Shown: positions 958 to 14,252 of the stretch, one piece after another
Numbering within the stretch: position 1 is the first letter of the stretch
How the letters are laid out: every line of letters starts with the position of its first letter
Assembly: GCA_048882385.1 (NCBI GenBank)
Contig: JBHLRQ010000081.1
Span: 1 to 14,356 of the forward strand
Source of the DNA: Candidatus Thorarchaeota archaeon
GTDB lineage: Archaea; Asgardarchaeota; Thorarchaeia; Thorarchaeales; Thorarchaeaceae
DNA length: 14,356 bases
Direction: 5' to 3'
Program-made: the position numbers and the translations under genes
Notes under the pieces: model-generated
Databases searched by the model: none
Seen by the model: only the letters and a program-made list of their open reading frames with translations
What the model was told of the DNA's origin: nothing

Positions 958-1233
958 TTGGCTCGAGTCACAGCAAAGTTCTTCGCCACTGTCAGAGAGA
1001 TAACAGGAGTCAGAAGTGCAGAATTTGAAGCGAAAGATATCAGAGAGTTATTGGATCTTCTTACAAAAACATACCCGAAGTTTTCTGATACTGTGCTGAA
1101 TGATGACGGCAAGCTCAAGCAATTCTTCTCATGCATGGTCAATGGAAAGCGCATCGAGCTACTGGATAGCTATGATACTGTCCTAAAAGACAATGATTCT
1201 ATTGCTCTGTTTCCTCCAGTTGGAGGCGGATGA
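958..1233 (+). CDS. moaD: MoaD/ThiS/SAMP1-type ubiquitin-like sulfur carrier (beta-grasp fold)
   Basis: KFFATVREITG at the N-terminus, VNGKRI, LKDNDSIALFPPVGGG with a C-terminal Gly-Gly. Start is either GTG 949 (ORF track) or TTG 958, which I prefer for SD spacing and MoaD length. Confidence 0.88.
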   Translation: MARVTAKFFATVREITGVRSAEFEAKDIRELLDLLTKTYPKFSDTVLNDDGKLKQFFSCMVNGKRIELLDSYDTVLKDNDSIALFPPVGGG

Positions 1234-2640
1234 ATGAGTAGCACTCTCACATCTACCTTTAGAAGGCACGTGAGAGATTCTGTCGATTTAGTTGTAAAGA
1301 ACGCTCGTCTTCTTCTAGAATCTGGAGTGAGTAGAGGAGGTATTGGAGTTGTAGGTGAGAAGATTGTCATAATCGCATCGGATGACCATCTTCCAGAGGC
1401 TACAACTGTCATTGATGCTGAAGGAAAAATTCTGATGCCTGGACTCATAGACACACATGCTCACATTCATGACCCCTCAATGCTGGATCACGAAGACTTC
1501 ACAACAGGATCGCAGGCAGCTGCTGCTGGCGGAGTAACAACCATTGTGGATATGCCTCTAACAAATCAGGTAGACTCTATTGAATCAGTAGAGGAGAAGA
1601 TTGCTCAGGGAGAATCTATGAGCCTAGTTGATTTCTCCTTTTATGCAGGAATGATGAACGCGGGTAATATTAGCGCGATTCCAGAACTTATCCAGAGAGG
1701 CGTAGCCGCGTTCAAGGCTTTCACTTGTGAGCCTTATCAGACCAACAACGGTGTGATTGTGAAGTGCCTGAGTGAAGTATCAGAATATGGAGGTCATCTG
1801 ACCATACATTCTGAGGATCAAGGAGTACTGAATGAGTTTGGAAATGAGATGGATGGAAATTGGGATGCCCCCATAAGCCACGCTTTGGCAAGACCCAATA
1901 TTGCAGAGTTTCTTGCCATCCGATCCTGTTTAGATATTGTGAAGCAGACTGGTGGGCATCTACACATTGCTCACGTGACGACTAGGGAAGGAGTACATGA
2001 GATCGAGAAGGCTAAACTAAGTGGGAACATGGTGACAACTGAGGTCTGCCCACATCACCTTGTTTTCTTCAGGGATGACATGAACCGTCTAGGACCAAAG
2101 AGTAAGATGAATCCGCCGTTGCGTACAAAGGAAGATATGGCTGCGCTCTGGTCTGCTCTACTGAGAGGAGCTATTGATACAGTTGTGAGTGATCATGCAC
2201 CGTGCCCCATTGAGAAAAAAGAGGCTGGGTCAAATGACATAAGGGATGCATGGTCAGGCGTCGATGGTATACAAATGATACTCAGAATCCTTCTATCAGA
2301 GGGAATCAACAAGGGAAGACTATCGCTCTCAAAACTGCTTCGAGTGTGTTCTCGAAATCCGGCGAGAATATTTGGACTATATCCGAAGAAGGGAGTATTG
2401 CGTATTGGTGCTGACGCAGACTTTGTGATTTTTGATCAGACTCGTGAAGAGAAGATAACTGCAGATTTAATGTTCTCCAAATGTGGCTGGACACTCTATG
2501 AGGGAATGAATATGAAGGGAGTCCCAGTAATGACATTTTCAAGAGGGGTACAAGTATTCAAAGATGGTCAGTTGATTGCAAAACCAGGACACGGGAAATA
2601 TCAAGCCATGGGAAGTGGACTCAGACCTAACGGAGACTAG
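1234..2640 (+). CDS. Cyclic amidohydrolase, allantoinase/dihydropyrimidinase/dihydroorotase family (most allantoinase-like)
   Basis: PGLIDTHAH (HxH), AAAAGGVTTIVDMP, AFKAF (carboxylated Lys), HSED, HIAHV, EVCPHHL, KMNPPLR, SDHAP, AWSGVDG, NPARIFGLYPKKG, GADAD. The true start may be GTG 1270. Confidence 0.88.
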   Translation: MSSTLTSTFRRHVRDSVDLVVKNARLLLESGVSRGGIGVVGEKIVIIASDDHLPEATTVIDAEGKILMPGLIDTHAHIHDPSMLDHEDFTTGSQAAAAGGVTTIVDMPLTNQVDSIESVEEKIAQGESMSLVDFSFYAGMMNAGNISAIPELIQRGVAAFKAFTCEPYQTNNGVIVKCLSEVSEYGGHLTIHSEDQGVLNEFGNEMDGNWDAPISHALARPNIAEFLAIRSCLDIVKQTGGHLHIAHVTTREGVHEIEKAKLSGNMVTTEVCPHHLVFFRDDMNRLGPKSKMNPPLRTKEDMAALWSALLRGAIDTVVSDHAPCPIEKKEAGSNDIRDAWSGVDGIQMILRILLSEGINKGRLSLSKLLRVCSRNPARIFGLYPKKGVLRIGADADFVIFDQTREEKITADLMFSKCGWTLYEGMNMKGVPVMTFSRGVQVFKDGQLIAKPGHGKYQAMGSGLRPNGD

Positions 2641-2644
2641 AACC

Positions 2645-3136
2645 TTGACTGAACTGAAATTTGTATTTGGTGACCCAAAATTATGCTCAGGATGCATGAC
2701 ATGTTCAAACACTTGCAGTATGTATTATTTCAAAGTGATAAGCCCAGAACGAGCTCGGAATAGAGTTGTGAGAGTTGAGCCAGCATTGGACTTTCCTCTC
2801 TTCTGCCGAAACTGTGAAGATGCTGCATGTATCAAAGCATGTCCAGAAGAAGCCCTAATGCGTACATCAAAGGGAGTTGTAATAGTCAACAACAGAAAAT
2901 GTGTGGGTCATGGCGAATGTGTCAAGGCATGTCCGTATTTCGCAATCCGAATCCATCCAGACACTGGAAAGGCATTCAAGTGCATCCAATGCGGAGAGTG
3001 TGTAGAACGATGTCCTGCTGATGCGATTTGGATGACAACTGATGATGATCTCTCTAAGAGAGACAAAGATGGAACGATCAGAGATCTTCACGAACAGCAC
3101 AAAGACGTAATCTATGATAAGGAGGACTGGCTATGA
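2645..3136 (+). CDS. 4x[4Fe-4S] electron-transfer subunit (DmsB/CooF/AorA-like)
   Basis: Cys blocks CSGCMTCSNTC, CRNCEDAACIKACP, CVGHGECVKACP, KCIQCGECVERCP. I prefer start TTG 2645, just after the upstream stop and a GGAG, over TTG 2576 in the ORF track. The stop overlaps the AOR start (ATGA). Confidence 0.9.
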   Translation: MTELKFVFGDPKLCSGCMTCSNTCSMYYFKVISPERARNRVVRVEPALDFPLFCRNCEDAACIKACPEEALMRTSKGVVIVNNRKCVGHGECVKACPYFAIRIHPDTGKAFKCIQCGECVERCPADAIWMTTDDDLSKRDKDGTIRDLHEQHKDVIYDKEDWL

Positions 3137-5007
3137 TACATGGTGTTGGTGGCAAGATCCTGTGGGTGAATCTTACCAAGGGATCAATCGAAAAACGACC
3201 ACTTGATGAAGACATGATCAAGGACTACCTTCTCGGGGCAGGATATCTTTCCAGAATTCTCTTCGACCAAATTCCAAAAGGTATTGACCCGTTGAGCGAT
3301 AAGAATGTGCTTGGAATTGCTACTGGACTCCTTACTGGCTCGATGTTTCCTCAGGCCTCAAGGCATGTTGTTGCAGGACTTTCACCTCTCACCGATGTAT
3401 GGGGTGAGAGTCATGCTGCTGGATTTTGGGGAGCTGAACTCAAGTTTGCAGGGTATGATGCAATAATCTTCACAGGAGCTTCATCAAGCCCTGTATATCT
3501 CAACATAAAGGATGAGAATGTAGATATCTTGGATGCAGAGTCAGCTGGAGTGTGGGGTAAGGATGTCTTTGAAACTGATGACATCCTCAAGTCAAAGCAT
3601 GGTAAGCGGTGCAGAACTCTGTCGATTGGGCAGGCCGGGGAGAACCTGGTCAGATTTGCAGCTGTCATGAATGATAGAGACAGAGCATCTGCACGTTCTG
3701 GATTAGGAGCTGTAATGGGTTCAAAGAAAATCAAGGCAGTCTCAGTCAGAGGTTCTGGAAAGCTAGAAGTTGCCGATCCCAAGAACTACTTGAAACAGAT
3801 AGATGTGTTTCACAAGCGGATGATGGAGAATCCTTTCACGCCAGGTCGAATCAAATACGGAACCACGAGTCTTGTTGAACTAATGCAACACATTGGACGT
3901 CTACCAAGCTATAACATGAAACAGGGCGTCTTTGAAGGCTTCGAGAAGATCAGCGGTGACGCCATCAACCAAAAATACCTCGTAAAAGCAAGAGCTGATT
4001 TTTCATGTCTTCAGCGTTGTGGTCGCTATACTGCAGTAAGGACAGGACCATATGCCTATGAAGGAGGAGCTCCAGAGTTTGAAACTCAGTCATCAATGGG
4101 GTCCCGATGTGGAAACGATAATCTGGAATCAGTACTTTTCGGGCATCATCTTGCAAACCAATTTGGGATGGATACAATATCATTGGGTGCTACAATCTCC
4201 TGGGCAATGGAAGCCTGGGACGAGGGTTTGTTGACATCTGAAGATACAGGAGGAATCGATCTCAGTTGGGGAAACCATGAAACTGTTGTCAACCTGACAA
4301 GAATGATTGCTCTTCGAGAGGGATTCGGAGATGTGCTCGCAGAGGGAAGTGCTCGAGCAGCTCAGAGGATTGGTAGAGGAACTGAAAAGTTCGTTATGGC
4401 AGTGAAAAAACAGGAGATTGCAGGACAAGAGCCAAGAGCGCAGAAATCAATGGGTCTCGCTGCAGTGACTGCAGCCAGGGGTGCTGATCACCTCTATTCT
4501 TTTCCTGTGCTTGACGAGGCGGGATTTGATGATGAAATCAGAGAACGATTTGGCAAACAATACCTACCTGAGATGGCAGATCGTTTGAATCCCAAATACA
4601 AGGGAATCATGGTCAAGGAATGCGAAGATTTCATGGTAATGATTGAGAGTGTGGGTCTATGCAAGTATGGAACACAGATTCCTCCTGAATTCTTCTATGA
4701 TGATATTGCCTTGGCTCTAAAAATCCATAATGGTCTTGACTTTACTGGAAAGGAACTCCAGACTATCGGTGAACGAATTGTCAATCTCAATAGGTTGTTC
4801 AACGCACGTCTTGGAATAACAAGAGCGGATGACTGCTTACCTGATAGATTGACAAAGGAGAAAGCACCATTGGGACCGTCTTCTGGCGAGGTCGTTGAGA
4901 TAGATATGATGCTCGATGAGTACTACACTGAACGTGGATGGGACCTCAAAACGGGACTTCCACTCAAAGAAACATTGGAGCGACTTGGATTAGAAAAAGA
5001 TACTTAG
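3133..5007 (+). CDS. aor: Tungsten-containing aldehyde:ferredoxin oxidoreductase family protein
   Basis: GKILWVNLTKG, SPLTDVWGESHAAGFWGAELKFAGYD, IGQAGENLVRFA, RSGLGAVMGSKKIKA, PEFET, GMDTIS, REGFGDVLAEGS, RGADHL, GLCKY, YYTERGWD. The 624-aa length is typical of the family. Confidence 0.95.
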   Translation: MIHGVGGKILWVNLTKGSIEKRPLDEDMIKDYLLGAGYLSRILFDQIPKGIDPLSDKNVLGIATGLLTGSMFPQASRHVVAGLSPLTDVWGESHAAGFWGAELKFAGYDAIIFTGASSSPVYLNIKDENVDILDAESAGVWGKDVFETDDILKSKHGKRCRTLSIGQAGENLVRFAAVMNDRDRASARSGLGAVMGSKKIKAVSVRGSGKLEVADPKNYLKQIDVFHKRMMENPFTPGRIKYGTTSLVELMQHIGRLPSYNMKQGVFEGFEKISGDAINQKYLVKARADFSCLQRCGRYTAVRTGPYAYEGGAPEFETQSSMGSRCGNDNLESVLFGHHLANQFGMDTISLGATISWAMEAWDEGLLTSEDTGGIDLSWGNHETVVNLTRMIALREGFGDVLAEGSARAAQRIGRGTEKFVMAVKKQEIAGQEPRAQKSMGLAAVTAARGADHLYSFPVLDEAGFDDEIRERFGKQYLPEMADRLNPKYKGIMVKECEDFMVMIESVGLCKYGTQIPPEFFYDDIALALKIHNGLDFTGKELQTIGERIVNLNRLFNARLGITRADDCLPDRLTKEKAPLGPSSGEVVEIDMMLDEYYTERGWDLKTGLPLKETLERLGLEKDT

Positions 5008-5621: not shown

Positions 5622-6914
5622 TCAAATGAATCTAAGAAGATATGTTGTCCCAGTCACGCTGAGATCTTCAACATTGTCTGTAACATCAAGGTGAACTCCG
5701 CACAGTGTTGCAATGCCACGAATGAGTAGAACACCAAGACCAACAAGAGGCTTCTCCGATTTATATATGGCATCTGTAGAGTTCAGGAATGTCTTGATAT
5801 TCTCTGGTAGCCCACTTCCCCTATCACTGATTGCTACTTCCATGACATTTGAATCAGAATTCGACCCACAAACCTTGAGAGAAGGACTTCCATGTTTGAA
5901 AGCATTATCAAAGATATTCCACATAAGCTCATGGATTAGTCGGGGGTTTTCAACTAGGAAATCATCATGCATCTCAATTTGAATTTGCTCAGTAGTGAGC
6001 TTGTATTCTTTGATAACTCGCTCTTTCGCATCATCTAAGATTGTCGTCATTGGAATCTTTTCAGAGGGGGTTCGTGCTTGACTCAAAGATACAGAAATAT
6101 CTCGCATGTCATCTACAAAACGTCCTGCATCAACAAGAACCTCAGTTGCGATATCTAGCCAACGGTTTTCTACAACATCCGCTCCCTCCGTTAGTTCTAA
6201 TGCATGTCTGGCTGTTTGAATGTAGTTTCTGATGTCATGTTGAACCAGACCAGATATTATCTCGGATATCTGGTACTGCATTTCAAGATCTTTATTGACG
6301 GCCGCTGTAAATAGAGTGAGCATTGCCGATCCAGTTATGATTACGCCCGCAGCCTGTAAAAAGGTGAAGAATTGGAATAGATCGAAGGTAAAAACTGTCA
6401 AGGGAAAAAGTAACCATGATACTGCAATGAGTAGCATTCCAAGTATGAACCACCATTGAGATGAGTTACCATCACCGACACTCTCAAACCCGAAAACCGT
6501 GCGTGACGCTAGAATACAAACATAGACGATATGAAAACCGAGAGGCATGAAGACATACTGAAATCCTATCTGGAAAACAAGTCCTAGTATCAACAAACTA
6601 GAAAAGAGGACCGCGCCAACACCATAAAGCTGAATTCGTCTCTTTGTCAATTCAGAGCTTCGTGTTCCATCTAATATCAATGTGGCTCCAATATACATAG
6701 CTACCATTGCGAACATGTCTTGGGGAGCGAGTCCCGATGGCGATGACCCGAAAGCTCCCTGTAACGCACCAGCGGTATAGGTCAACCAACCAATAGCCCA
6801 GAGTCTATAACCGTGTCTCTTAGAATATCGGATCAGTCCCCATGCAATGGTCCCATAAAACGTGATGAACGTGAAAAGAAGAACCAAATCAAGCACGAGA
6901 TCTGTTGCCTGCAT
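5622..6914 (-). CDS. Membrane-bound sensor histidine kinase (about 7 TM N-terminal domain + HisKA + HATPase_c)
   Basis: About seven hydrophobic segments in the first ~205 aa. H-box QHDIRNY, N-box NIFDNAFKHG, G1 DRGSGLP, G2 GLGVLL, terminal GTT. Confidence 0.88.
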   Translation of the reverse strand: MQATDLVLDLVLLFTFITFYGTIAWGLIRYSKRHGYRLWAIGWLTYTAGALQGAFGSSPSGLAPQDMFAMVAMYIGATLILDGTRSSELTKRRIQLYGVGAVLFSSLLILGLVFQIGFQYVFMPLGFHIVYVCILASRTVFGFESVGDGNSSQWWFILGMLLIAVSWLLFPLTVFTFDLFQFFTFLQAAGVIITGSAMLTLFTAAVNKDLEMQYQISEIISGLVQHDIRNYIQTARHALELTEGADVVENRWLDIATEVLVDAGRFVDDMRDISVSLSQARTPSEKIPMTTILDDAKERVIKEYKLTTEQIQIEMHDDFLVENPRLIHELMWNIFDNAFKHGSPSLKVCGSNSDSNVMEVAISDRGSGLPENIKTFLNSTDAIYKSEKPLVGLGVLLIRGIATLCGVHLDVTDNVEDLSVTGTTYLLRFI

Positions 6915-7132: not shown

Positions 7133-7792
7133 ATGATGAATCTTAGAAATCTGGTGGATGAAAAGCACTTTCCACTCTGGGGACTGGCAGGTTCGCTGGT
7201 TGGTCTTATCTTCATATTGACTCCACAGTTATTCTATACCGGAACTCTTGGAGAACCATTCTCGATGTTTAATCATGCTGTGTCAGAGCTGGGAGAGCTG
7301 GGAGTATCCGAACTTGCATGGATGTTTAACATTGGATTGTTCCTAGCTGGAATTCTCTACATTCCATTTATGATTGGACTTGGACTGTATATTGACAACA
7401 TTGTCAGTAAGATTGCGGCTGTAGGAGGAGTATACTCAGCAGTATCAGTAGCATTGGTTGGAGTATATCCTATGAACTACATGTACGAACATTCAGTGAC
7501 TGCAATCTCGTTCTTTCTCAGTGGCATGGTCATGACTCTACTCTGGGCGATAGCAATACTGGTCCAGAAAGAGGTCAGGATTTACAAAGGACTATCACTT
7601 GGTGGATTCATCAACATGACAGTGTTTGCACTATTCCTCTATGGACCTTGGGAAGGCTTAGGTGGTCCGAGACCTGATTTTTCGATTAGATTGACCTTGG
7701 AATGGGGGATATACTGGGCAATTGTAGGTTATCTATTAGTCCTGTCAATCTATGTCTGGAAGAAAGAAAAGAGTGCTGAGAGCCCTCAGTAG
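7133..7792 (+). CDS. DUF998-like multi-pass membrane protein
   Basis: Multiple hydrophobic helices with FSMFNHAVSELG, WMFNIGL, LVGVYP..H...A..FF and a late EW, the pattern I associate with DUF998. Confidence 0.72.
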   Translation: MMNLRNLVDEKHFPLWGLAGSLVGLIFILTPQLFYTGTLGEPFSMFNHAVSELGELGVSELAWMFNIGLFLAGILYIPFMIGLGLYIDNIVSKIAAVGGVYSAVSVALVGVYPMNYMYEHSVTAISFFLSGMVMTLLWAIAILVQKEVRIYKGLSLGGFINMTVFALFLYGPWEGLGGPRPDFSIRLTLEWGIYWAIVGYLLVLSIYVWKKEKSAESPQ

Positions 7793-7799
7793 GACTCTC

Positions 7800-10700
7800 T
7801 CATTCTAAGAAGAGTGAAACTCTACCAGGCAAAGCAAACCGAGCTTTGTTCTGTGGGTCGTACGCAGCTTTCTCAGAACTATGTATGGCTATTTTCATCT
7901 TCAATTCTGAACTCATGTATTCAATAGAGTCATTTAGGGCAACCATTTCATCATTTGCACTAGATGAGTGATCCCAGAGACCATTCTCCTTAGCGATTCG
8001 ATCTACGATGTTCTTTACTAACTTACCGTGACTCTTGAATTCATCATTGGACATCAGGTGTTTCATTATGTCACCAACTATGATAGGTAGATTGTTTTCT
8101 CGTATACTTTTCATAGCTTTGAACATCCAATCGGGTGCCACGTAGATATGCACAGTAGATGCTTTCTTACCCTTCAAAAGCTTCACAATCTCCCGAATGT
8201 CCTTGACAGTGGATTCCACTACTTCTTGAGCCATCTCAACTGACGGATCAATCAGTTTCTTGTCAGCTATTGGCCAGTCAGCCATTGACACATACCCATC
8301 ACCGTTCATTTTGGCCCAGAACTCTTCACTGGTGTGAGGGATCATGGGCGAAATCAAACGGACCCACTTCTCGCACAAATATGCCATTGTTCCCTCTCTT
8401 TCCTCCTTGGGTACATTTCGTTTCTCATATTGACTGATTGATCTGATCATTTCAGACATGACCGTGATTGCATAGTCGCGTATCTTGAAGTTCTCCAGAT
8501 GGTCTGTACACTCTTGAATAATGGAATTCACACGGGACAGAATCCATCTGGTGATAGTAGTTGGGTTGTCCTTCTTAGAATATACTCTAGGTGTCTTCTT
8601 TGAGTACCTTTTCATTATCTCGCTGAACTGTCGTATACGGTTTCTTACAGCTGGGACATCCTTCTCCCGCCAGTCCATCAATGTTGCAGGTTCTGCAGCC
8701 GATAATACGTACGTCCGGAAGACATCAGCCCCATACTTTTTGGGTATCTCTCCCAGAGGGATTGTATTCCCTTTACTCTTGGACATCTTTCTACCTTCCA
8801 TGTTCATGTGCTCATTTAGACTGATGCATTGTATCCAGTGTTTCTTAGGGAATATCGCAACATGATGAAAGATTGCAAAACTCAAGTGATTAGAGATGTG
8901 CGACGGAGCAGTATGTCTTTGGTCATTGGGATACCAATACAGAAACTCATTACGCATTGACTTCAAGAGATCAGACGAAATACCTGTTTCCTTTTCCACC
9001 TTCTCCGCTTTTCCTTTGCCTAAAAAGACATGGTCAAAGAAACTCAGTGTCAGTTGTTCTGGTTTTAGTTTGTTCTGAGTGATCTTGTGTGCAACGGTGT
9101 AGAATGCCATGTAAATGGTCGAGTCAGACAGAGCTTCTATTATCCAGTCTGGATCAAATGGTAGTGGTGTCCCGATTCCTCTCTTCCTTGCACACGGACG
9201 CTGGGCTAACCAGTCAAAGGTTGACTCAAACAAGATGCGGAAGTTCTTGGGGATGATTTCCATGGAGTTTAACGCATCCCACGCCTTGTCTTTCCATCCA
9301 GGGCTCTCATAGTCCAAGAACCACTGTCCGGATAAGACTGCAATCTGTACATCGGTACCGCATTTGCAGATGACTGGTCGTTCATCGGGTTCAAAGAACA
9401 CATCACCTCTGTTTTGTGTCTTTAGCCATTCAACGACATCATCCTTTACTTCACTGACCTTTCTACCTGCAAAAGGACCACAGTTGTCCATCATGGTTCC
9501 TTCATAGTATTCAGCCTTGTAGACTTCTTGAGTTGCCTCTTCTAGCTTCTCACCATCATTTTGGGACTCCACACCGATTTTCTCTACCACATCCTTTGTC
9601 AGAAATTCACTACCACCTTCGATAGATATCATCATGACTATCTCGATATCACGTACATCATTGGGGGAGATCCCATAGTCTTTCAGTGCAGATGGATCTT
9701 TCCACAAGTCCCTCAATGCAACATAATCGAATGGGGCATGCCCAGGTACTGAGTAGACAACTCCTGTTGCATTAGTTACATCGACAAAGTCTGCAGGGAG
9801 AATCAGCTTGCTACTCCCATCGTGAACTGTCTTGAATGTCTTTCCAATCAGCTTGGAACCGGAAAATGTTTCCAAGACCTCAACCTCTTTCGCCTGTAGC
9901 TTTAACTTCTCTACAGCGATGGAAGAAACGATCCATTTCTCACCATTCACATTGGCTTTGACATACTCTTCCGATGGATTGATCCACAGGTTCGTAATGC
10001 CAAAGGTGGTTTCGGGCCGCAGTGTTGCGGCAACTAGAAATCCGTCCTCGAAAGGATATTTGATTGTGGTAAACTCCTTTACCTTAGCTGTAGTTCCCTC
10101 TAACAGATCATCTTCGCCAACTGGATTCCCGCAGTTGGGACAGTACAGTAATGGATAGGATCCTTTCTTGATGTACTCTAAGTCCATGAACTTCTGGTAC
10201 TGCCAAGTGATGAATTGATTGTAGATATCGTCACCTGTGGTGAAATTGCGTCTCCAATCGATACTGTAGCCCAAGGCCTTGAAGTCTTTCGAAATAACAT
10301 CTGCGAAAAATCTGACTGTCACCCATGGATCTGTGAACTTCTTCAACTGAGCATCAATTTTATCCTCATCGTCCATATACACGCGCATGTCGCGTTTGTA
10401 ATTTTCAATCGCAAAAGGATCTCCATGTTTTAGTCGGTCCACCATTCCTAAGATAGGTGTGCCAGTGATATGGGATGCCATTGGAAATAGGACGTTGTAT
10501 CCTTGCATTCGCTTATATCGAGCAATAAGATCCCCCATAGTGTATGTTCTACCGTGGCCCATGTGCAATGCACCATTGGGGTATGGATACGGAACAGTTA
10601 GAAAGAACTTGTTTCTTTTGGGGTCTGGATCAGCCTCGAAGATTCTGTCCTTACTCCAACGTTTTTGCCATTTCTGCTCTAGTTTAGCGAATTCACTCAT
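7800..10700 (-). CDS. leuS: Leucine--tRNA ligase, archaeal/eukaryotic type
   Basis: PYPYPNGALHMGH (HIGH), KMSKSKGN (KMSKS), CP1 editing domain ATLRPET...TGVVYSVPGHAPFD, IEALSDSTIYMA, C-terminal KARFALPGR; 966 aa. SD-like GAGGT upstream. Confidence 0.97.
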   Translation of the reverse strand: MSEFAKLEQKWQKRWSKDRIFEADPDPKRNKFFLTVPYPYPNGALHMGHGRTYTMGDLIARYKRMQGYNVLFPMASHITGTPILGMVDRLKHGDPFAIENYKRDMRVYMDDEDKIDAQLKKFTDPWVTVRFFADVISKDFKALGYSIDWRRNFTTGDDIYNQFITWQYQKFMDLEYIKKGSYPLLYCPNCGNPVGEDDLLEGTTAKVKEFTTIKYPFEDGFLVAATLRPETTFGITNLWINPSEEYVKANVNGEKWIVSSIAVEKLKLQAKEVEVLETFSGSKLIGKTFKTVHDGSSKLILPADFVDVTNATGVVYSVPGHAPFDYVALRDLWKDPSALKDYGISPNDVRDIEIVMMISIEGGSEFLTKDVVEKIGVESQNDGEKLEEATQEVYKAEYYEGTMMDNCGPFAGRKVSEVKDDVVEWLKTQNRGDVFFEPDERPVICKCGTDVQIAVLSGQWFLDYESPGWKDKAWDALNSMEIIPKNFRILFESTFDWLAQRPCARKRGIGTPLPFDPDWIIEALSDSTIYMAFYTVAHKITQNKLKPEQLTLSFFDHVFLGKGKAEKVEKETGISSDLLKSMRNEFLYWYPNDQRHTAPSHISNHLSFAIFHHVAIFPKKHWIQCISLNEHMNMEGRKMSKSKGNTIPLGEIPKKYGADVFRTYVLSAAEPATLMDWREKDVPAVRNRIRQFSEIMKRYSKKTPRVYSKKDNPTTITRWILSRVNSIIQECTDHLENFKIRDYAITVMSEMIRSISQYEKRNVPKEEREGTMAYLCEKWVRLISPMIPHTSEEFWAKMNGDGYVSMADWPIADKKLIDPSVEMAQEVVESTVKDIREIVKLLKGKKASTVHIYVAPDWMFKAMKSIRENNLPIIVGDIMKHLMSNDEFKSHGKLVKNIVDRIAKENGLWDHSSSANDEMVALNDSIEYMSSELKMKIAIHSSEKAAYDPQNKARFALPGRVSLFLE

Positions 10701-11535: not shown

Positions 11536-11600
11536 GGTCTTACACTGCTTCATATTTTTGCAGGACTTGTTAAAATCAATAGTTGATAGAAGGTATTGCT

Positions 11601-12542
11601 ATGGTGAAAGCAATAGTGGATGCCGTTGACATCGACCCAAAGACAGGAACTACGATTGGCTACTACACGTTTGGAGAAGAGAGGCCAAACATGATAATCA
11701 TTGCCGCAATGAATGGTCGTTCTGCCACTGATGTCTATGCGAGCTATCTCATAATGAAATATCTTGAGAGTTTGGATCGAATTGATGGCTCGGTCACATT
11801 TCTACCCGTAGCAAGCCCGTTGGCATTTCGTCTTGGAGTCAAAGTGTCTCCACTTGATTCGAGAGACCTTGACACTGTATTTCCAGGAAACGAGTATGGT
11901 TCTGTGACTGAAAGAACAGCATGGGAAATCTGGCGTAGAGCTTCAGCTTCAGATTTTATTATTGAACTTAGAACGGGATGGCAGAACTGTAGCAGTCACA
12001 TTGTGGCAATGCATCGTGATTATATCCATGTCCGTAATCTTGCTTCACAAATTGCTTTACCATATGTCGCTCAATCTGCTGGAATAAGAGGAGCTCTTAC
12101 TACGGAAGCAGCGCACGAAGGAATCCCTGCTGTCACTGTTGAGATGCGAGGCGACACAGACCAAGTAGACTCACAGGCGGCTGTAGAGGTTAGAGAAGCA
12201 ATTCTGAATTTGATGCGTATCAAAGACATGATTCCTGGAGAGAAGATTGAATCGTCAAATACACTCATGGGACGACTTCAACACATTAACTCAGATACAG
12301 AGGGATTCTTTGTTCCAAAAGTGAACCTCGGGGAAACCGTAAATTCTGGAGATGTGATTGGTCAGGTTCAGGACAAGAATGAGATTGTTACACCACATGA
12401 TGGTGCTGTAATCTCAGTGAGTCGCATCAACTATGTTTTTGAGGGGGATATGATAGCACGGATTGCAGCTCCTCTTGGAGACCAATGGACTTCTATGGAA
12501 GTTGAACAAGAAGAGCCAATTCCAAAAAGAAGGAAATGGTGA
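11601..12542 (+). CDS. Succinylglutamate desuccinylase/aspartoacylase (M14 ASTE) fold protein with C-terminal lipoyl/biotinyl-like barrel; predicted catalytically inactive
   Basis: GSVTFLPVASPLAF, RDLDTVFPG...GSVTER.A, DFIIELRTG, GIPAVTVE, then GFFVPKVNLGETV..GDVIG...PHDGAV. Start is ATG 11601 (after GAAGGT) or TTG 11583. Confidence 0.82.
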   Translation: MVKAIVDAVDIDPKTGTTIGYYTFGEERPNMIIIAAMNGRSATDVYASYLIMKYLESLDRIDGSVTFLPVASPLAFRLGVKVSPLDSRDLDTVFPGNEYGSVTERTAWEIWRRASASDFIIELRTGWQNCSSHIVAMHRDYIHVRNLASQIALPYVAQSAGIRGALTTEAAHEGIPAVTVEMRGDTDQVDSQAAVEVREAILNLMRIKDMIPGEKIESSNTLMGRLQHINSDTEGFFVPKVNLGETVNSGDVIGQVQDKNEIVTPHDGAVISVSRINYVFEGDMIARIAAPLGDQWTSMEVEQEEPIPKRRKW

Positions 12543-13000
12543 TTTTGAACGACGATTGTGACCAGATTCGTTATTTGATGAGGACAAATGTTGGAGACAA
12601 ACGTCTACGAGAAAATCCGAATCTCTTCTTGATTGGAAGTTGTATGGATCGCTTTCCTGATTTTGTAAGGGAAATATGCGAGAGGGAGGGGAACCCGTCA
12701 ATCCTCCAGATTTGCCTAGAAGAAACTCATGTCAACCAAGCTGGCTTCAAAATTGGCTCGATTGTGAAATATTCAGGCATCAAAAAAGTGGTAGTTCTAT
12801 CTATCGATGGAAGCCCTCATTGTGTACAACTACATTATGTTGTAGAAGACATCAAACGTCACTTCGCAAAAGAAATTGAAACCGTTCATTATGTAATTGA
12901 GAAAGGCACCTTACATGAGATATCACCAGATGCTGTAAAACGTTCAAGACATCTTTCAAAGATTCAGAGTATGATTGATGAATATTCAGAATCATCGTAA
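12536..13000 (+). CDS. Small Cys/His-motif putative Fe-S or metal-binding protein
   Basis: Motifs LIGSC, CLEETH, DGSPHCVQLH resemble a conserved family usually auto-annotated as 4Fe-4S ferredoxin, although there is no CxxCxxC. It overlaps the upstream stop by 7 nt, suggesting translational coupling. Confidence 0.6.
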   Translation: MVILNDDCDQIRYLMRTNVGDKRLRENPNLFLIGSCMDRFPDFVREICEREGNPSILQICLEETHVNQAGFKIGSIVKYSGIKKVVVLSIDGSPHCVQLHYVVEDIKRHFAKEIETVHYVIEKGTLHEISPDAVKRSRHLSKIQSMIDEYSESS

Positions 13001-13679: not shown

Positions 13680-14252
13680 ATGATTGAAGCAAGTAAGAAT
13701 CCCTTCTCTGCAATAGAGATGTGGGATGATACTATGGTCACCGTGAATGAAGGTGAAGAGAAGAAGAGAGTAGACGCTAAGCATTACAGGATACGATACC
13801 TTGTAGGGGAAAGCGAAGACAAGAGATTTGTCGATGGTGGTACTGATGATATCTCCGAATTGTCTGAAAAGACGCTATTCCTAGCACCATCAGTTCACAG
13901 GCTCAGTGGAGATCCGTTTCACTATGATCACTCCAGGGTTGAGAGTATCACAGGTAAGATGAGAATCGCTGAGAGAACTAAGGAATTGCATCGACACCCA
14001 GCATGTGAAGAGCACAAGACTGTTGAGGTCATCTTCGAGAGTCCGGGTGTAGAATGCTGCGCCATGTCAAAGGAACAGGCAGAGGAAATGCGTGTTCCAG
14101 TTCAGTATGTTGCAGGATACATGTTAGGCAAGAAAGAGGGTATGATTAAAGTAGCCCTCTCAAAGACTGTTGTCGACGAAGACACTGAGTATTACGATAA
14201 TATCCATATTATCCCAGAGTCTGCAGTCAAGATGCTGTCTTGTCTAGAGTAG
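13680..14252 (+). CDS. Hypothetical protein (190 aa, beta-rich, possibly two small domains)
   Basis: Long ORF with GGGTGA SD-like sequence before the ATG and protein-like composition. No family recognised with confidence. Confidence 0.75.
   Translation: MIEASKNPFSAIEMWDDTMVTVNEGEEKKRVDAKHYRIRYLVGESEDKRFVDGGTDDISELSEKTLFLAPSVHRLSGDPFHYDHSRVESITGKMRIAERTKELHRHPACEEHKTVEVIFESPGVECCAMSKEQAEEMRVPVQYVAGYMLGKKEGMIKVALSKTVVDEDTEYYDNIHIIPESAVKMLSCLE

Follow-up and report, generated by a model that had tools for sequence, protein, structure and literature searches.

The 14,356 nucleotides analysed here, called the window throughout, are contig C81 of a 3.7-Mb Candidatus Thorarchaeota archaeon genome that is assembled in 256 contigs and 95.3% complete. 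Near the start of the window lie four closely packed genes encoding a MoaD-like sulfur carrier, a cyclic amidohydrolase, a polyferredoxin (fdx1) and an enzyme of the aldehyde oxidoreductase (AOR) family, hereafter AOR1; a gene for a PfkB-family kinase is divergent from moaD, and one for a protein with an Lrp-type ligand-binding domain is convergent on AOR1 (Table 1). These six genes and their spacing are as an earlier reading, made from the letters of the DNA alone (the sequence-only reading), had claimed. The intervals between the four co-directional genes are 0, 4 and -4 nt: a TGA-ATG junction at 1231-1236, then TAG, four nucleotides and TTG at 2638-2647, and finally an ATGA at 3133-3136 in which the polyferredoxin stop overlaps the AOR1 start. 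The mechanical open reading frame (ORF) of the polyferredoxin opens at TTG 2576, but relatives align from TTG 2645, and the 4-nt gap is therefore the better call. GC content varies little along the window (0.40-0.46). The subject of this analysis is this cluster and, with it, the conserved island of roughly 17 kb of which the window is one arm.

The arrangement is strongly conserved among Thorarchaeota. Orthologues of the hydrolase (61-82% identity) occur in 74 of the 85 genomes of its own family, covering 15 of 16 genera; a search of the 314 other Asgard genomes at E <= 1e-85 gave none, and one of the latter (G029) has homologues at 40% and 38% identity, in a context with no AOR and nothing informative. 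At the 21 loci from the same genus the polyferredoxin gene always lies 3' of the hydrolase, and AOR1 comes next in 20, the remaining locus ending earlier. The order moaD-hydrolase-polyferredoxin-AOR is likewise kept at all 18 loci read from 14 other genera, and in both sets the moaD-like gene is always directly 5' of the hydrolase. The pfkB gene stands beside moaD in 19 of the 21 same-genus loci (in the remaining two a contig end truncates the locus within the hydrolase) and in 17 of the 18 others, where the Lrp-domain gene also lies 3' of AOR1 in 15. With an identical order at 21 of 21 and 18 of 18 loci, chance does not account for the arrangement. The linkage of hydrolase and AOR, on whose conservation in relatives the sequence-only reading had staked its case, is thus kept in order across the Thorarchaeota loci read, with inserts between hydrolase and polyferredoxin at 4 of the 18 other-genus loci, and it recurs, at 44% and 59% identity respectively, in unrelated metagenome contigs. 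No RNA run was listed among 20 public sequencing runs containing the window stretch.

In relatives the island continues beyond pfkB with an M24 hydrolase, a DHO_dh-family flavoprotein (hereafter PreA-like) and a second AOR (AOR2). In the genome studied here these genes lie on contig C91, whose end adjoins the start of the window; its order is an ABC-2 permease, a TRZ/ATZ amidohydrolase, a PAS kinase, a polyferredoxin-AOR2 pair, a ClC channel, the PreA-like gene and the M24 gene. The ClC channel was found only in the single same-genus locus examined, and the M24 hydrolase and PfkB are on the opposite strand in the family island order. The genes for TRZ/ATZ, the second polyferredoxin (fdx2), AOR2, PreA-like, M24 and PfkB occur together in 14 of 16 wider loci, which represent 15 genera with the window's own included, and the two exceptions hold part of the set. 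With a reductase resembling PreA/UacX, amidohydrolases of the TRZ/ATZ and SsnA types and an M24 enzyme, the surroundings of the cluster point to N-heterocycle catabolism, as the sequence-only reading had proposed.

Outside Thorarchaeota the island takes other forms. A second Asgard family has AOR1 orthologues (61-65% identity) in 14 of its 19 genomes, and two further families have them in one genome each. We read six such loci, from the Asgard families f12, f15 and f33; gene orders and orientations differ among them, and all six contain a polyferredoxin-AOR1 pair (61-64%), a second polyferredoxin-AOR pair, a PreA-like gene (53-55%) and MoaD-like genes, together with a DadD-like deaminase and a second TRZ/ATZ protein that scores best on the SsnA model. 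The deaminase is a 52-53% orthologue in five of the loci; that of genome G044 is 34% identical and scores 430 bits on the DadD model, below the cut-off of 522. None of the six loci gave a match to the cyclic hydrolase, M24, PfkB or the Lrp domain. In G044 (L168:1678-13361, on contig C11) a co-directional string reads SsnA, deaminase, PreA-like, polyferredoxin, MoaD-like, AOR, polyferredoxin, AOR1; a divergent polyferredoxin-AOR pair precedes it, making three AORs in 12 kb, and the SsnA copy exceeds its curated cut-off (455.6 bits against 444).

A metagenome scan with an alignment of PreA-like proteins, in which the Lrp domain was not a query, yielded 80 loci, and in 66 of these the PreA-like protein is less than 65% identical to the copy in this genome. 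An AOR is present in 20 of the 66, an SsnA-type gene likewise in 20, and the window hydrolase has a homologue in 6; pfkB is absent from the metagenome islands outside Thorarchaeota. Loci L215 and L216, from two assemblies that probably represent one population, have the string polyferredoxin-AOR-PreA-like-polyferredoxin-AOR-hydrolase (44%)-AOR1 (59%) with gaps of about 20 nt. SsnA is followed in L210 by a divergent PreA-like-hydrolase (44%)-polyferredoxin set, L225 has PreA-like-hydrolase (46%), and in L209 a 41% hydrolase homologue lies 1.2 kb from polyferredoxin-AOR-PreA-like-polyferredoxin-AOR. Given these arrangements, the link between hydrolase and AOR is not confined to one family. Directly 5' of the L215 string (L215:1912-7548) are six co-directional ORFs of 399, 354, 333, 292, 247 and 235 amino acids, sizes that recall a binding-protein-dependent ABC transporter.

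We also scanned species-representative genomes with an alignment of hydrolase relatives that are 37-44% identical, taking 10 kb on each side of 80 loci. A TRZ/ATZ protein is present in 22 of them and a PreA-like protein in 3. In a Desulfurococcales metagenome-assembled genome (MAG; L087:6670-11335) the end of an adenine deaminase gene overlaps the start of the hydrolase gene, with TRZ/ATZ and RuBisCO genes within 5 kb, and in a Bathyarchaeia MAG (L085:3105-10409) the relative lies near a NUDIX-IF-2B fusion, a TRZ/ATZ gene and a MobA-like nucleotidyltransferase. The company of these nearest reference relatives, which is of a nucleoside type in both MAGs, also includes a ribose-bisphosphate-isomerase-like gene.

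To judge from its sequence, the window hydrolase is a member of the dihydroorotase (DHOase)/allantoinase/hydantoinase family of cyclic amidohydrolases, and it is a third paralogue, nearest to L-hydantoinase and the allantoinases. The genome has three full-length members of the family. One of them, at C108:4992-6305, is the PyrC candidate (333.8 bits on TIGR00857, cut-off 279), and another, at C28:20916-22343, is the dihydropyrimidinase (493.8 bits on TIGR02033, cut-off 393.25). The window protein passes TIGR00857, a broad domain model, with 309 bits, below the score of the C108 copy, and it falls under the cut-off of every PyrC equivalog; on TIGR02033, which covers dihydropyrimidinase, D-hydantoinase and HyuA, it reaches 319.1 bits. 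Identity as PyrC or dihydropyrimidinase was ruled out by the better-scoring copies on C108 and C28, and the concern that the hydrolase might be the only true PyrC of the genome falls away. The sole equivalog passed is the allantoinase model TIGR03178, by 0.35 bits (358.2 against 357.85), while two other allantoinase models are failed (NF004839, 352.4 against 631; NF005960, 272.8 against 688). Among solved structures the best match is L-hydantoinase (1gkr, 266 bits), followed by allantoinases at 231-236 bits and DHOases at about 186.

The binuclear-metal ligand set of the hydrolase is complete (HxH, Lys, His, His and Asp), and its motifs DTHAH, FKAF, HSE, HIAH and SDHAP match columns that are invariant among its relatives and the genome's own PyrC and dihydropyrimidinase. 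The Lys is expected to be carboxylated, a modification that is itself not visible from sequence. When 1.84 billion cluster representatives were searched with the hydrolase, the family's own cluster came first at 65% identity and the next, the nearest outside Thorarchaeota, at only 44%. Public records call the orthologues 'allantoinase AllB' or 'dihydroorotase', and both names are probably misleading. Some amidohydrolase matches in several genomes were flagged as having stops inside, a signal that we rejected: the match in this genome begins 5' of an intact ORF, and the others are assumed to be the same artefact.

AOR1 is closest among solved structures to WorL (9MQX_D, 432 bits), followed by 1AOR (392), AorB (8C0Z, 350), FOR (278), BamB (4z3w, 213) and WOR5 (208). 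AOR2 also matches WorL (9MQX, 409 bits), 1AOR (397) and AorB (8C0Z, 370) best, with FOR, WOR5 and BamB well below. On similarity, therefore, we reject the suggestion that AOR1 reduces a ring in the manner of BamB, and the PreA-like flavoprotein is a better candidate for such a step. The polyferredoxin has four [4Fe-4S]-type motifs, the third of which reads CxxHxxCxxxCP, giving 15 Cys and 1 His, and its best solved relatives are WorS (9mqx_E, 79 bits), the Fe-S subunit of WOR5 (75) and AorA (8c0z_C, 66). In view of these relatives, the four motifs and the ATGA overlap, we regard the polyferredoxin and AOR1 as putative subunits of a heterodimeric WorSL-type pair. The His of the third motif was considered as a feature of the clade and rejected, the His form being matched in just 14 of 49 loci scanned, only some of which are orthologous fdx1 loci.

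AOR1 has AFOR_N and AFOR_C domains and retains the Glu and His that align with the active site of the P. furiosus AOR, which we take to be catalytic residues. Near residue 290, Asp stands in for the first Cys of a CxxCxxxC motif (D-x-x-C-x-x-x-C, within R[AS]D[WF]xCLQRCGR), and the other three Cys are retained; in the P. furiosus enzyme the cysteines of this motif are presumably cluster ligands. The Asp variant is found in 15 of 15 Thorarchaeota orthologues and in 5 of 6 from other lineages, AOR1 of the G044 lineage having Cys. The first Cys is kept in the P. furiosus AOR and in 6 of the 7 other paralogues of this genome that were aligned (the one on C10 is unaligned there). In addition, the Tyr neighbouring the active-site residue is Phe in the Thorarchaeota orthologues (EFE[ST]Q for EYE). 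Some AOR1 orthologues have an extra Cys right before the second ligand. Sequence does not reveal whether the metal of AOR-family enzymes is W or Mo.

In a maximum-likelihood tree of 29 AORs, which is midpoint-rooted, lacks named references and has three long-branched rows, the island AORs group in a single clade (support 95/94) that divides into three: AOR1 (100/100); the AORs downstream of the PreA-like gene (100/99), which include a paralogue of this genome on C38, now away from the island; and those upstream of it, that is, AOR2 (87/78). Five other AOR paralogues of the genome, which has about ten, fall outside the island clade. The available text of PMC12318220 divides the WOR family into 92 clades and places the 9MQX-type, P. 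furiosus-type and AorB enzymes in its clade 87, in which it has no heterodimeric WorSL enzymes; the polyferredoxin-AOR1 pair may therefore lie outside clade 87. Whether AOR1 would prove to be one of the ordinary broad-specificity AORs, a question raised by the sequence-only reading, has a divided answer: it groups with them by its nearest solved structures, yet it belongs to an Asp-variant subclade that is linked to a pathway.

The PreA-like flavoprotein is a distant relative of the known ring reductases, with 182 bits on the PreA model NF006183 (cut-off 335), about 100 bits to dihydroorotate dehydrogenase (DHOD) 1B and 90 bits to dihydropyrimidine dehydrogenase. In four of four aligned sequences from three Asgard families, E[FY]STH and a 12-residue deletion replace the LSCPH loop, whose cysteine we take to be catalytic in PreA and DHOD; the genome's own PreA and a DHOD-like protein on C29 retain the SCPH of this loop. 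Two CxxCxxCxxxC [4Fe-4S] motifs are present at the C-terminus of the PreA-like protein, and no PreT-like or PyrK-like partner gene adjoins it in the loci read. The M24, TRZ/ATZ and PfkB proteins are likewise remote from any characterised enzyme. The best solved relative of the M24 protein is a prolidase (98 bits). The TRZ/ATZ protein scores 412 bits on a 5'-deoxyadenosine deaminase model (cut-off 522) and 248 bits against a methylthioadenosine/S-adenosylhomocysteine (MTA/SAH) deaminase structure.

Elsewhere in the genome, an SsnA-like gene (C79:11815-14145; 397 bits against a cut-off of 444) lies next to an Amidohydro_2 gene, with a gene for a HEAT-repeat protein upstream. SsnA-like genes occur in 123 of the 400 Asgard genomes searched, and only 4 exceed the curated cut-off. 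A complete conventional cluster for reductive pyrimidine catabolism is present at C28:15801-22343, where PreA (431.8 bits, cut-off 335), dihydropyrimidinase (493.8, cut-off 393) and a CoA-acylating methylmalonate-semialdehyde dehydrogenase (525.5, cut-off 448.5) are accompanied by a nitrilase-family amidase and a class-III aminotransferase. A search of this 95.3% complete genome for molybdenum hydroxylases (PF02738) returned 0 matches, and the control genomes responded.

With a little better than even confidence, we read the island as a reductive, oxygen-free pathway for N-heterocycles, most likely of the purine type, with the window hydrolase as a HyuA-like ring opener and the AORs as integral redox partners. 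We infer its substrates and all its reaction steps from what is observed: which genes are present, how they are ordered and conserved, to which families they belong, and that their catalytic residues are intact. The PreA-like enzyme, with FMN and two [4Fe-4S] clusters, would dearomatise the ring using low-potential electrons, and an SsnA-type amidohydrolase, encoded elsewhere in this genome and inside the island in other Asgard families, would open the six-membered ring. The hydantoinase/allantoinase-like hydrolase of the window would open the remaining five-membered ureide ring, a HyuA-like step, and the M24 enzyme could strip ureido or amide groups. The MoaD-like protein presumably serves tungstopterin synthesis. 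The two putatively heterodimeric WorSL-type AORs, presumably wired via their own polyferredoxins, may oxidise an aldehyde derived from the reduced, opened ring and return its electrons; alternatively, they may hydroxylate or dehydroxylate the ring, in the manner of the bacterial Mo enzyme XdhD. The data fit either an electron loop fed by aldehyde oxidation or direct (de)hydroxylation by the AORs. In favour of the purine-type pathway we count the tight packing and conserved order, the extended island and its rearranged versions in three other Asgard families, the recurrence of the hydrolase-AOR1 link elsewhere, the separate clade of the island AORs, the nucleoside-type company of the nearest reference hydrolases and the lack of a Mo-hydroxylase match. 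To these we add the parallel sets in the genome, with PyrC separate, PreA joined by dihydropyrimidinase and a third DHO_dh-family/cyclic-amidohydrolase pair in the island, and the resemblance to the bacterial reductive uric-acid pathway, including the SsnA-type genes that stand alongside the PreA-like gene in 20 of the 66 metagenome loci outside Thorarchaeota.

A bolder proposal, which we think rather unlikely, is that the island AORs in vivo are tungsten-dependent purine (de)hydroxylases and not aldehyde oxidoreductases, doing the job of the Mo enzymes XdhD and XDH. Purine hydroxylation is formally the same chemistry as aldehyde oxidation, the hydroxylation of an sp2 C-H, and Mo aldehyde oxidases act on both aldehydes and purine-type substrates. 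Each of the three island AOR subclades could then serve a different ring position (C2, C6 or C8), and the AORs could supply the PreA-like enzyme with the compound that it dearomatises, made from purines after their deamination. Genome papers, to go by the available text of PMC11291895, treat the many Asgard AOR copies as generic aldehyde oxidisers. An AOR clade that is tied to ring-reducing and ring-opening enzymes would have a specific role that is open to test, and it suggests a way in which nucleobases could be fermented by sediment archaea devoid of molybdenum hydroxylases. Should the tungsten enzymes work on the ring directly, the AOR family would gain in reaction scope; if they oxidise a ring-derived aldehyde and send the electrons back via Fe-S wires, the island would form a compact redox loop for an otherwise unfavourable dearomatisation.

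Several observations weigh against a purine-type pathway. In both AOR1 and AOR2 the Glu and His seen in ordinary aldehyde oxidoreductases are conserved, and the solved enzymes nearest to the two act on ordinary aldehydes. At 4 of the 18 other-genus loci, inserts of 1.3-3.5 kb split the hydrolase from the polyferredoxin; three of the four inserts carry, respectively, TFIIB, two PAS histidine kinases, and a B12-binding mutase-like with an octopine-dehydrogenase-like gene. Co-transcription of the hydrolase with the polyferredoxin-AOR pair is therefore not obligatory, and moaD-hydrolase and polyferredoxin-AOR are separable units that still stay together. The 39 Thorarchaeota loci are not independent observations, since genomes of one family share ancestry, and an AOR lies within 10 kb in 0 of the 80 reference-genome loci of the hydrolase's nearest relatives. 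The synteny of amidohydrolase, aor and pfkB, which the sequence-only reading wanted examined across archaeal genomes, holds across Thorarchaeota, with these inserts; the reference loci have no AOR, and pfkB is absent from the islands elsewhere. As for the accompanying enzymes, the in-island TRZ/ATZ protein is closer to 5'-deoxyadenosine/MTA deaminase (412 bits) than to SsnA (231) and could be a housekeeping gene; the SsnA-like gene on C79 is far from any AOR, with neither an AOR nor a PreA-like gene in its neighbourhood; and the M24 enzyme, at only 98 bits to prolidase, stands where the bacterial reductive uric-acid pathway, compared below, uses an M20 enzyme. Searches of the genome did not find YgeX (TIGR03528, best 48.3 bits against 532) or YgeW (TIGR03316, best 151.5 against 500), and so the bacterial pathway has no counterpart here for its downstream half, and other end products must result.

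This last point also suits the idea that the same island serves another class of substrate, pyrimidine-like or a small ring such as orotate, hydantoins or a modified base, with the PreA-like protein and the window hydrolase as a third couple of the DHOD/DHOase type. Three parallel pairs can indeed be recognised in the genome, a PyrD-like protein (C29) with PyrC, PreA with dihydropyrimidinase, and PreA-like with the window hydrolase, and only the PreA-like protein has E[FY]STH in place of the LSCPH loop that both paralogues keep, which suggests a substrate other than uracil or orotate. We nevertheless consider another substrate class unlikely: SsnA-type genes, a marker of purine-ring cleavage in the available text of bioRxiv 10.1101/2025.05.19.654654, accompany the PreA-like gene in other lineages, adenine deaminase lies beside the hydrolase among its nearest reference relatives, and a complete conventional pyrimidine cluster is already present on C28. 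Distinctly unlikely, in our view, is the absence of any shared pathway, whereby an ordinary heterodimeric AOR operon, with MoaD for its cofactor, would handle aldehydes of fermentation or detoxification and the ring enzymes would be neighbours by inherited order. The association outlasts extensive rearrangement in at least four Asgard families and on unrelated metagenome contigs, including co-directional strings with gaps of about 20 nt, and the island AORs form a clade apart from the other paralogues of the genome. On the other side stand the broad specificity of the closest solved relatives, the insertions at 4 of 18 loci, the 0 of 80 reference loci with an AOR, and the roughly ten AOR paralogues of the genome, because of which chance AOR neighbours are likelier than usual.

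The sequence-only reading had also offered ureide breakdown, with the hydrolase as a true allantoinase and the AOR oxidising the glyoxylate-type aldehydes that result. Allantoinases are the second-best solved relatives of the hydrolase, its orthologues are named 'allantoinase AllB' in public records, and the TIGR03178 score (358.2 bits against 357.85) is a pass, albeit by just 0.35 bits and with clear failures on the other allantoinase equivalogs (352 against 631; 273 against 688). L-hydantoinase is, however, the best solved relative, and the island neighbours are of the reductive type (PreA-like, SsnA-type) and not of the ureide type. Allantoin formation normally requires oxidative cleavage of urate, and no Mo-hydroxylase able to make urate was found in the genome. 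We therefore regard a ureide pathway as unsupported and highly improbable.

The remaining genes of the window add detail at the edges of the island (Table 1). The MoaD-like protein scores 74.8 bits on both TIGR01687 (cut-off 49.5) and NF041918, above the cut-off in each case, and its solved relatives are MoaD and SAMP1; it has the top score among 5 ThiS-family matches in the genome and is the sole one inside an AOR cluster. The Lrp-domain protein consists of the ligand domain alone, lacking a DNA-binding domain, and is possibly a small-molecule sensor. Relatives of PfkB align from about residue 23-31, and its true start codon is therefore uncertain. Its best NCBIfam match is ribose-1-phosphate kinase at 43 bits against a cut-off of 330, and an orthologue gives 75 bits to TM0415 and 68 to MJ0406 among solved structures; with matches so weak and mixed, the proposed salvage of ribose by this kinase is unsupported. 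Farther along the window, 3' of the cluster, are a protein with a histidine-kinase-type ATPase, a DUF998 membrane protein and an archaeal leucyl-tRNA synthetase (LeuRS). We place all three outside the island because only LeuRS recurs downstream, in 2 of the 18 other-genus loci.

Table 1. Genes of the window, with positions counted from its first nucleotide, and copies of the PreA-like flavoprotein used for alignment
Feature	Position	Strand	Matches and remarks
PfkB-family kinase	3-926	minus	PF00294 66.8 bits; C-terminus truncated by contig start
MoaD/SAMP-like ubiquitin-fold sulfur carrier	949-1233	plus	ends GGG; PF02597 55.2 bits; TIGR01687 and NF041918
Cyclic amidohydrolase, 468 aa	1234-2640	plus	PF01979
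Polyferredoxin (fdx1), TTG start	2645-3136	plus	Pfam Fer4 families
AOR-family enzyme (AOR1)	3133-5007	plus	PF02730 237.9 bits; PF01314 414.5 bits
Lrp/AsnC ligand-binding (RAM) domain protein, 78 aa	5009-5245	minus	PF01037 56 bits
Histidine-kinase-type ATPase protein	5622-6914	minus	no recognised sensor domain
DUF998 membrane protein	7133-7792	plus	
Archaeal LeuRS	7800-10700	minus	
ORFs of 154-208 aa	10909-11535, 12536-13000, 13680-14252		no Pfam or NCBIfam match
AstE/AspA-family protein	11583-12542	plus	best NCBIfam match DoeB (ectoine-pathway deacetylase), weak, 43 bits against 403
PreA-like flavoprotein, copies aligned	L068:9197-10291 (own C91), L165:5918-7105, L168:6999-8186, L047:1348-2442		

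Our literature searches found nothing that joins tungsten, aldehyde oxidoreductase and hydantoinase, and no title on this cluster among papers on Thorarchaeota with aldehyde ferredoxin oxidoreductase. For allantoinase, hydantoinase, dihydropyrimidinase and purine or nucleoside degradation, there was no mention of Thorarchae* among the matches listed; for SsnA with tungsten, the matches listed were all on skin sympathetic nerve activity; and no paper combined AOR, purine, Asgard and amidohydrolase, three of the four being the most that any contained.

The closest known system is the bacterial reductive uric-acid pathway. In the available text of bioRxiv 10.1101/2025.05.19.654654, XdhD reduces urate to 2,8-dioxopurine, which YgfK dearomatises; in C. 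difficile the FAD-less PF01180 enzyme UacX replaces YgfK, with reduced ferredoxin as the proposed donor, and the reduction step is detectable only if coupled to ring cleavage by SsnA. HyuA then opens the hydantoin, YgeW or UacY and then YgeY remove ureido groups, and YgeX yields pyruvate. A second preprint (10.1101/2025.04.24.650524), as far as its available text goes, concurs on SsnA and HyuA. As these two sources give it, the E. coli cluster comprises XdhD-YgfM, YgfK, SsnA, HyuA, YgeW/YqeA, YgeY as well as YgeX, and the C. difficile variant has UacX and UacY; the words 'tungsten' and 'archaea' are absent from both main texts. Like this pathway, the island combines a pterin-metal oxidoreductase, an FAD-less PF01180 FMN/Fe-S reductase of the UacX type, a hydantoinase-type cyclic amidohydrolase and a metallopeptidase-fold hydrolase; an SsnA-type amidohydrolase lies inside it in other Asgard families, once above the curated cut-off, and on another contig in the genome studied here. 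It differs in having AORs with polyferredoxins in the place of XdhD, in a genome in which no Mo-hydroxylase was found, and an M24 instead of an M20 enzyme; its cyclic hydrolase, unlike HyuA, fails the HyuA/dihydropyrimidinase model (319 against 393), its PreA-like protein lacks the LSCPH cysteine loop, and there is no YgeW, YqeA-type partner or YgeX. The Asgard island is an analogue, and not a member, of the bacterial pathway.

Canonical reductive pyrimidine catabolism, through PreA/PydA, dihydropyrimidinase, a beta-ureidopropionase-type amidase, an aminotransferase and methylmalonate-semialdehyde dehydrogenase, shares with the island two protein families and the logic of reducing a ring before hydrolysing it. 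Since that pathway is separately complete on C28, the window genes are additional paralogues. Enamidase in nicotinate fermentation provides a precedent for ring reduction followed by an amidohydrolase that yields an aldehyde. The L-hydantoinase of Arthrobacter aurescens (1GKR), the allantoinases 3HM7, 3E74 and 8HFD and the D-hydantoinases/dihydropyrimidinases and HyuA resemble the window hydrolase in fold family over its full length and in a complete binuclear-metal ligand set, but differ from it in their genomic partners.

The redox half of the window resembles the tungsten AOR systems, in which a MoaD-like gene in the cluster and the catalytic Glu and His are shared features. The two-domain WorL subunit to which AOR1 corresponds is found in WorSL of Acetomicrobium mobile WorABCSL (9MQX), AorABC of Aromatoleum aromaticum (8C0Z) and the P. 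furiosus AOR (1AOR), and WorS and AorA are four-cluster small subunits like the window polyferredoxin. In contrast to WorABCSL and AorABC, the window has no adjoining BfuABC or FAD subunit genes, and in contrast to 9MQX, 8C0Z and 1AOR, the AOR1 clade has Asp for the first cluster Cys and, in Thorarchaeota, EFE[ST]Q for EYE. Unlike these systems, moreover, the AOR of the window is embedded among ring-processing enzymes.

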